Shown: piece after piece, positions 131-205 of the stretch | How the letters are laid out: every line of letters begins with the position of its first letter | How positions within the stretch are numbered: position 1 is the stretch's first letter | Origin: Escherichia coli | Lineage (GTDB): Bacteria > Pseudomonadota > Gammaproteobacteria > Enterobacterales > Enterobacteriaceae | Reading direction: 5' to 3' (one strand) | NCBI RefSeq assembly: GCF_003334385.1 | Contig: NZ_QOWN01000098.1 | Length of the DNA: 2,727 nucleotides | The notes under the pieces: generated by a model | What the model saw: only the letters and a program-made list of their open reading frames with translations | What the model was told of the DNA's origin: nothing | The model's database searches: none | Position numbers and translations under genes: made by a program

Positions 131-205
131 TGTCCGGGCATTTTTTCGGTTTTTATCTTTATTATTCAGTTTGTTGCATGGAAAAAATGTTAACTGGCTT
201 TTTCA

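Follow-up and report, generated by a model that had tools for sequence, protein, structure and literature searches.

What does a T-rich segment do when it lies between repeated sequence motifs at the packaging site of a phage? We examined this question in a 2,727-nucleotide (nt) stretch of Escherichia coli DNA (contig NZ_QOWN01000098.1 of assembly GCF_003334385.1; hereafter the window), in which a preliminary description, made from the sequence alone, had pointed to phased T-tracts and an A6 tract at positions 131-187 as a possible intrinsic bend or architectural-protein site resembling that of lambda cosB. The window is the HNH endonuclease/cos/terS/terL junction of a Pankowvirus-type Stx prophage; its gene order is the 3' end of the HNH endonuclease gene, a non-coding region, terS, terL, and the start of a prohead protease/capsid gene. 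We consider the chances about even that the 57-bp T-rich segment is the bendable, fixed-length internal linker of a cosB-like terminase-recognition region in an HK97-type cos site. The tracts, the repeated motifs, their position relative to the mapped cos end, the conservation of 150-203 and of the spacing, and the predicted curvature were established directly, and the cosB-like interpretation proved broadly right in layout.

The segment lies within an array of an 11-nt motif, ATGTTAACYRG, five copies of which occur in the window, all in 110-234; five copies were reached in none of 200 shuffles, and the hexamer GTTAAC was found at the same five places only. The tract coordinates reported earlier were exact (T6 at 141-146, T5 at 150-154, TTT at 158-160, TT at 162-163 and 165-166, and A6 at 182-187), as were the flanks, namely the palindrome at 109-130 and the next motif copy at 187-197/198. 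The elements of the array and of the spacer are as follows.

109-130: perfect 22-bp palindrome of two inverted motif copies, with the core GTTAACATGTTAAC at 113-126 and 11-nt arms that are 100% complementary
110-120, minus strand: motif copy 1
119-129, plus strand: motif copy 2
131-149: variable spacer half, with T6 at 141-146; together with 90-102 it makes up an extended inverted repeat, of which it is the 3' arm and in which no compensatory changes occur
150-176: conserved T-rich core of the spacer (T5, CTTTAT and ATTCAGTTTGTTG)
181-204, plus strand: unit of A6, motif copy 3 and T5 (GAAAAAATGTTAACTGGCTTTTTC)
187-197, plus strand: motif copy 3
206-238: inverted pair of motif copies 4 and 5 (GCAAATGTTAAC, 9 nt, GTTAACATTTGC), retained in a satellite-like copy
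210-220, plus strand: motif copy 4
224-234, minus strand: motif copy 5

The position of the cut was mapped by homology. For the related Stx1 phage Lys8385Vzw, PhageTerm gives 3' cohesive ends with the cos sequence CGCCCCCCCT (PMC7946995). The record of this phage (MT225100) ends in ...GGACACCGCCCCCCCT and starts with CTCACGCAGAG.../CTCACGCAGAGAAAAAATTCCCGTTTCAGGGCAGTTAACATGTTAACTGG..., and the window carries on with the same spacer; within the cohesive end the two differ at positions 73 and 78, both of which are common polymorphisms in the clade. Independent support for the mapping came from the record of the Burkholderia phage Bcep176, where the homologous 10-mer CGCACGTTCC stands at each end and precedes CTCACGCGCAGAAAATTTTCCC. 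Homology to these two phages predicts 10-nt 3' cohesive ends at 70-79, and the mature left end would by this mapping be window position 80, which we numbered +1.

70-79, plus strand: predicted cosN with the 10-nt 3' cohesive end CGCGCCCCGT
+12 to +17 from the cut: conserved A6
+30 to +51: palindrome
+52 to +108: T-rich segment
+108 to +118: motif 3
+131 to +155: motifs 4 and 5
+230: start of terS

With the cut at 70-79/80, repeated motifs border the T-rich segment on both sides, and the segment itself falls after the cut and before the small-terminase gene terS, on the first-packaged side of the cos nick site.

A comparison of 48 distinct clade sequences revealed that variation in this region is concentrated in two patches, 132-148 and 177-181, and that the least variable intergenic stretches are 149-176 and 182-238. 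Twelve of the 19 columns of 131-149 vary, and position 146 is G in 35 of the 48 sequences, the T6 tract usually being T5G; only two singleton changes were found in the 28 columns of 149-176. The A6 at 182-187 is invariant and is lengthened to A7 in 19 sequences. The spacer is 56-58 nt long in all 48 variants.

A terS-less relative of this region offered a natural footprint. In E. coli 042 (NZ_CP042934.2, ~939.3-948.7 kb), an island of ~9.5 kb between cspD/yljB and clpS encodes an integrase, a helix-turn-helix (HTH) regulator, an Icd-like protein, a RepA-family helicase, and a ClpP-like protease/major-capsid fusion, and ends in a copy of the cos region that lacks terS and is 77.7% identical overall; this version is present in 50 complete E. 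coli genomes. BLASTP detected no similarity between the capsid fusion of the island and the phage capsid protein. The island has the appearance of a phage satellite whose cos site imitates that of Pankowvirus-type Stx phages, and its cos copy retains the G-run, the cut site, the A6, the palindrome, a 62-nt spacer, and three further GTTAAC copies. An ungapped alignment of phage and satellite from the cut gave the following identities.

80-108: 90%
109-130: 82%
131-149: 47%
150-176: 78%
177-181: 60%
182-203: 91%

The distance between the GTTAAC cores, 62 nt, is identical in the phage and satellite copies, and the composition of the segment is maintained in the satellite (33% G+C and 44% T). The T6 tract is lost (TTGTTG), and in a second satellite variant the T-run at 150-155 is broken (TTTTGT). 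The satellite keeps the spacing and the AT-richness, together with the block TTTT.TCTTTAT.ATTCA.....TTG and the A6-GTTAAC-T5 unit; the footprint covers 150-203 and the spacing, and does not include T6. T6 adds to the predicted bend in the window but is not a conserved component. The A6 at 182-187 abuts motif copy 3 and seems to belong to the A6-GTTAAC-T5 unit instead of standing alone as a phased tract; the best interpretation is that it flanks motif 3 on the left, a mirror of the conserved A6 at 91-96.

Distant TerS relatives (40-49% identical) were found in the Salmonella phage FSL SP-016 and in ~20 IMG/VR contigs. With a single exception among those listed, they have in common a cos core consisting of the G-run ... 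GGACACCGC.CCCC.CTCAC.CA.AGAAAAAATCCCC, which is directly followed by a ribosome-binding site and a terS gene starting with ATGTTAACAGCG. A single near-palindrome, GTAAACATGTTAAC, overlaps the terS start codon in these relatives, and the GTTAACATGTTAAC of the window (113-126) is the counterpart of this ancestral element, at an equal distance from A6. Burkholderia phages also keep ...TTTTCAGGATTTTGTTAATGGCTTTAACAGCG, and one of them has GTTAATGGCTTTAAC at the place of the near-palindrome. The terS gene starts with ATGTTAAC in all distant relatives, encoding Met-Leu-Thr with a rare TTA codon. TTA is rare in G+C-rich genomes such as those of Burkholderia phages, and its retention despite this rarity points to a constraint on the DNA itself, which suggests a DNA-level site over the start of terS, possibly for autoregulation. 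Since the distant relatives pass straight from the core to terS, positions 127-308 of the window are a clade-specific addition of ~190 bp. This addition supplies three more GTTAAC copies and the T-rich linker, and shifts terS downstream.

The proteins encoded in the window indicate which kind of terminase would use this DNA. Amino acids 2-57 of TerS match the Pfam family Terminase_2 (PF03592; E 2.4e-8), and its top PDB matches, although weak (E 0.18-0.76), are chains of the SF6 DNA-binding domain. TerS had no significant similarity to HK97 gp1 (E = 1), BLASTP gave no alignment of TerS with lambda Nu1, and an NCBIfam search returned no match for TerS or TerL. TerL is a distant homologue of HK97 gp2 (23% identity over 460 amino acids, E 3e-11). 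In SP-016, whose TerS is 48% identical overall, amino acids 1-60 are conserved far above the remainder; the TerS of Bcep176 is 37% identical to that of the window. An HK97-type nuclease and motor are thus paired with an SPP1-type small terminase, which is an unusual combination. We also noted a prophage remnant with a terS gene missing its first 46 codons and with unrelated AT-rich DNA in place of the entire cos region; it was considered as a natural TerS domain swap and rejected, being a truncated and uninformative remnant.

These features can be combined in a model of how the linker might work. The small terminase, presumed to be a ring of SPP1/SF6-type HTH domains, would bind the GTTAAC repeats, with the ancestral palindrome on one side of the linker and the clade-specific three-copy cluster (+108 to +155) on the other. 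The linker would hold a fixed 62 nt between the GTTAAC cores and would supply AT-rich, statically bent, and easily deformed DNA, so that one small-terminase oligomer could engage the palindrome and the downstream cluster by wrapping or looping. Because the N-terminus of TerS belongs to the SPP1/SF6 family, a linker that is bent or bendable and of fixed length would be needed for a single oligomer to hold both sides. Such an engagement would position the large terminase and the HNH nuclease on cosN (70-79), and the site would be of the cos type in which an HNH-assisted large terminase generates 10-nt 3' cohesive ends. We infer that bending or flexibility is the selected property and that no host factor is required; a host bending protein may assist.

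The composition of the segment is distinctive: 32% G+C and 47% T, in a window that is mostly 50-65% G+C. Runs of at least five A or T residues occur at 22.7 per kb in the intergenic region (308 bp counted) and at 5.8 per kb in the rest of the window, a difference of ~4-fold. Mononucleotide shuffles seldom give three such runs in 57 bp (P=0.005), but relative to dinucleotide-preserving shuffles the excess is marginal (P=0.06). The spacing of roughly one helical turn that had been proposed for the tracts was borne out only in part. The strongest AA/TT period in 131-187 is indeed 10.5 bp, but 6-7% of shuffles equal its power, and the gaps between tract centers (8.5, 32.5, and 16.5 bp) correspond to 0.81, 3.1, and 1.57 turns. 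Phasing of the tracts is therefore weakly supported, and to call them phased was overstated.

Curvature was predicted from helix trajectories computed with three dinucleotide wedge tables (Bolshoy-Trifonov, De Santis, and AA-wedge). In control sequences, the local bend per 30 bp was 34-39 degrees for A6 phased at 10.5 bp, 15-18 degrees for A6 every 15 bp, and 18-20 degrees for random sequence. Of the eight strongest local peaks of the window, the intergenic region holds five by the AA-wedge model and four by each of the other models; its peaks lie at ~53, 95, 146, 202, and 258. Within the segment, only the T6/T5 pair is locally curved (24-27 degrees), and 157-181 is at background. The proposed intrinsic bend was recovered as a net deflection of 50-59 degrees over 121-197, in the 96th-99.8th percentile of 77-bp pieces of the window; however, composition suffices to produce it. 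Between 7% and 18% of dinucleotide-preserving shuffles of the 57-bp segment reach the same bend, and the bend therefore follows from T-rich composition and not from a special phased arrangement. The predicted deflection is 47-68 degrees across all 48 clade variants, and lambda 41-117 (R3 to R2) gave 42-49 degrees with the same code, which is of the same order as the segment. The direction in which the major groove faces relative to the predicted bend depended on the model, and no conclusion was drawn from it.

Several of these results weigh against a bendable linker. The phasing is marginal, 7-18% of the dinucleotide-preserving shuffles reach the predicted bend, and in the satellite-like copies the predicted bend falls to 20-41 degrees. 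The wedge values follow published tables, and the results are only semi-quantitative; applied to lambda, the models gave 17-22 degrees for I1 (measured ~34-35) and 36-43 degrees for I2 (measured 28). TerS binding and bending in this phage system are deduced from sequence and models. In addition, nothing of 127-308 is present in the distant relatives, whose TerS is homologous and for which A6 and one palindrome presumably suffice in packaging. The linker is therefore not required by the terminase family and is an accessory elaboration.

The likeness to lambda cosB that the preliminary description had invoked stands for the layout, with repeats flanking an AT-rich predicted bend between the cut and terS, but not for the protein, as TerS is unrelated to Nu1, nor for T6, which is poorly conserved. 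The order of elements at lambda cos is cosN, I2, R3, I1, R2, R1, and Nu1, I2 also carries irregularly placed dA tracts, and the bends of I1 and I2 have been measured at ~34 and 28 degrees (PMC4856287). The window resembles this arrangement in having a cut, an A-tract stretch, a first TerS-type site, an AT-rich bent spacer, more repeats, and terS at ~190-230 bp from the cut, and the static bends predicted under the same models are similar in size. It differs in its predicted ends, which would be 10-nt 3' overhangs cut by an HK97-type TerL and its HNH partner (lambda has 12-nt 5' ends), in its repeats, which are GTTAAC-based palindromes with a spacer of 57 bp, and in having no significant IHF consensus in the region.

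Given that TerS is unrelated to Nu1 and has a Terminase_2 N-terminus, lambda I1 is no better an analogy than pacL of SPP1. The pac sites of SPP1 and SF6 contain runs of five to seven A.T pairs split by G/C, and their repeated boxes are set apart by intrinsically bent DNA, for which wrapping around the ring is proposed (PMC4737164, PMC4856287); in this family, rings of weak HTH binders spaced about one DNA turn apart are described as selecting intrinsically bent DNA (PMC4737164), and SF6/SPP1 TerS has been proposed to select intrinsically bent pac DNA (PMC4737164, PMC4856287). The TerS N-terminal domain of the window is in the same Pfam family as the pacL-binding G1P, with weak PDB matches to SF6, and its presumed target is likewise rich in A.T runs and, by sequence and prediction, intrinsically bent. 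In contrast, packaging of SPP1 is headful (pac) and its TerS sites flank the cut, whereas the window is of the cos type and has its candidate sites on one side, and SF6 binding is reported to be nearly sequence-independent, whereas the repeats of the window form a sharply defined 11-nt motif. The HK97 cos site shares with the window an HNH gene immediately upstream, a homologous TerL, 10-nt 3' overhangs (in the window by prediction), and an A.T tract shortly downstream of the cut (+23 to +31 in HK97, PMC11331095; A6 at +12 to +17 in the window). The TerS site of HK97 occupies positions 15-29 and includes a 9-bp A.T tract; it is a single 15-bp site with terS 50 bp from the end, whereas the region in the window extends over 230 bp with five motif copies and a T-rich linker, and its TerS is not detectably related to the DNA-threading type represented by gp1.

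Other explanations of the segment center on its conserved core. A host architectural protein, with integration host factor (IHF) as the obvious candidate, could occupy ~150-176 and bend the DNA sharply between the palindrome and motif 3, as at lambda I1; we find this doubtful. The earlier statement that there is no clean IHF consensus held, as the region has no match to the stricter WATCAANNNNTTR at one mismatch or fewer, and what remains is a single candidate.

164-176, plus strand: weak IHF-like candidate ATTCAGTTTGTTG, one mismatch from the R-variant consensus WATCARNNNNTTR

The best match in the lambda I1 region (79-91, minus strand) also has one mismatch, to WATCAANNNNTTR; moreover, the candidate lies within the least variable block, and between phage and satellite eight of the nine specified consensus positions are kept and two of the four N positions change. 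A T5 tract begins 14 nt upstream of the candidate, a spacing equal to that of the A-tract in the attP H' site; however, an ungapped comparison with H' matches only 17 of 35 positions, an equally good match arose in 17% of segment shuffles, and the window as a whole contains three matches against 2.4 expected. The satellite version, ATTCATCTGGTTG, has two mismatches, and the mismatch in the window falls on the A of WATCAR. The candidate is a possible lead, not a finding, and is not significant. We put forward, as tentative and rather improbable, a wider proposal in which a protein binds 150-176 specifically, be it a host factor resembling IHF or terminase or the HNH nuclease making a second contact, and in which this site and the three GTTAAC copies constitute a clade-specific cosB expansion of a machine built from HK97-type TerL/HNH and SPP1-type TerS, faithfully copied by the chromosomal satellite-like island for packaging. 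It is unlikely, in our judgment, that spacer length (helical register) alone matters, with T-richness a neutral by-product of the ~190-bp clade insertion or of AT-biased non-coding drift and the tracts having no role in bending. The constant 62-nt core-to-core spacing in phage and satellite, where 131-149 is down to 47% identity, fits such a view, as do the poor conservation of T6 and a curvature that is explained by composition and drops to 20-41 degrees in the satellites. However, 150-176 is conserved to the same degree as the motifs, both within the clade and relative to the satellite (78%), and both lineages have kept 32-33% G+C and 44-47% T, against the 50-65% G+C of most of the window.

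The remaining alternatives assign the T-richness to RNA or to protein. T6/T5 could be the U-tract of a (bidirectional) intrinsic terminator whose hairpin, at 90-147, blocks unregulated read-through from the HNH gene into terS. In this extended hairpin, A6 pairs with T6, CCCG/CGGG form the lower stem, and the palindrome is the upper stem; RNA folding of 80-200 produced it on both strands (z = -2.9 and -4.0), ending in the terminator-like CGGG-CA-U6 on the plus strand and CGGG-AA-U6 on the minus strand, and a weak terminator-like match at 134-149 is followed by T5. Yet the commonest variants break the pairs A91:T146 (35 of 48) and C110:G129 (31 of 48), no compensatory changes occur, the hairpin has two internal loops and was not called by a simple scan, an Rfam search gave no matching family, and both the lower stem and T6 are missing from the satellite-like copy and the distant relatives. 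The conservation of 150-203 would also be left unexplained. Accordingly, a terminator appears very unlikely, and the hairpin at 90-147 was rejected as a conserved structure for lack of covariation and because majority variants weaken it. We give hardly any credence to the last alternative, that the segment is T-rich because it codes for a hydrophobic peptide of 24 residues (MLTGCPGIFSVFIFIIQFVAWKKC; ATG at 119 to TAA at 193). The open reading frame (ORF) exists, as part of a frame from 62 to 193, is intact in 45 of the 48 clade members, and has several common changes that are synonymous or conservative; however, it has no Shine-Dalgarno sequence, its ATG lies at the center of the perfect palindrome, and three of the 48 variants carry frameshifts. 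The NCBI annotation pipeline PGAP annotates no gene there, nor any feature in the HNH-terS interval, in 1,249 E. coli records. In the satellite the frame stops after four codons (ATG TTA ACT GCC TGA), and 150-176 is still 78% conserved; the satellite keeps the DNA but not the frame, and the constraint therefore acts on DNA and not on a peptide. The small ORF at 119-193 was rejected on this basis.

Returning to the cos region proposed to contain the linker, the sequence around the cut includes further elements that are shared more widely.

28-35, strand not assigned: run of eight G residues (G8) before the cut, kept at G7-G9 throughout the terminase family and varying in length within the clade
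91-96, plus strand: family-wide conserved A6, located 28 nt before terS in 20 of the 21 distant relatives listed, including SP-016

The G-run lies ~35-40 nt upstream of the cut, is kept as G7-G9 in relatives whose TerS is 40-49% identical, and is recognizable in Bcep176 (GGGGAGGGGG); it might be a cosQ-like or nuclease-positioning element. The A6 at 91-96 varies in one of the 48 clade members, at position 96, and a local curvature peak lies at ~92-98. Together with a second A6 at 48-53, which is not conserved in SP-016, it brackets the predicted cohesive end with near symmetry (~-24 and +19 relative to the center of the end), and the two tracts coincide with predicted curvature peaks at ~53 and ~95. 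Within the cohesive end, the counts among the clade sequences are 31 G and 14 C at position 73, and 15 G and 33 C at position 78. Because the end is polymorphic and a genome can carry up to seven copies of the region, co-resident prophages may have non-identical ends. In PPompW-type prophages, which match the window from position 31 (within the G-run) onwards, the IS110-family element ISEc20 is annotated at or beside this boundary, ~40 bp ahead of the predicted cut, where it parts the HNH gene from cos.

We also searched for the motif arrangement elsewhere. A pattern scan of 100,044 species genomes for GTTAACATGTTAAC-N50-75-TGTTAAC gave six matches, all in unrelated organisms, which look like chance: four are in metagenome-assembled genomes of uncultured, non-enterobacterial bacteria or archaea, and two are in other archaeal records. 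Three unrelated AT-rich metagenomic viral contigs contain five to seven GTTAAC copies, mostly within (T)TAACATGTTAAC(TAT), and in two of them the copies lie upstream of an ORF with a terminase-like N-terminus; these clusters may reflect convergence or a shared recognition motif.

The genes bordering the region are as follows, with the non-coding stretch between the HNH gene and terS measuring 290 bp.

1-19, plus strand: 3' end of the HNH endonuclease gene, stop codon TAA at 17-19, from the phage 2851 annotation aligned to the window
309-872, plus strand: terS, GTG start behind the ribosome-binding site GGAGGAGG; amino acids 2-57 are Terminase_2 (SPP1/SF6-type)
869-2530, plus strand: terL, HK97-gp2-like

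No sigma-70 promoter was found on the plus strand of the intergenic region. Its sole sigma-70-like match is on the minus strand (216-187; TTAACA, 18 nt, TAACAT; 9 of 12 positions), is composed of two motif copies, and faces left, into the T-rich spacer. Between terL and the prohead protease gene (2555-2582), a terminator-like hairpin precedes a T7 run, and a second T7 lies within the end of terL (2517-2523).

The window is 94-97.5% identical to Pankowvirus-type Stx-converting phages (2851, YYZ-2008, 1717, and BP-4795), a group that includes many Stx1a, Stx2a, and Stx2c prophages at the same level of identity. Its first 320 nt were found in 1,244 of 5,426 complete E. coli genomes, with up to seven copies per genome. 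Bent or bendable AT-rich DNA between terminase-binding repeats is textbook in lambda cosB and SPP1 pac, and its presence here is unsurprising. If 150-176 were indeed a specific site, this region would offer a natural system in which to study the reading of bent cos DNA by a small terminase of the HTH-ring type. The cos region is widespread and includes that of Stx1, Stx2a, and Stx2c prophages. The map presented here would be useful for the design of cos-plasmid transduction assays and for studies of Stx-phage packaging and of possible interference by satellites.

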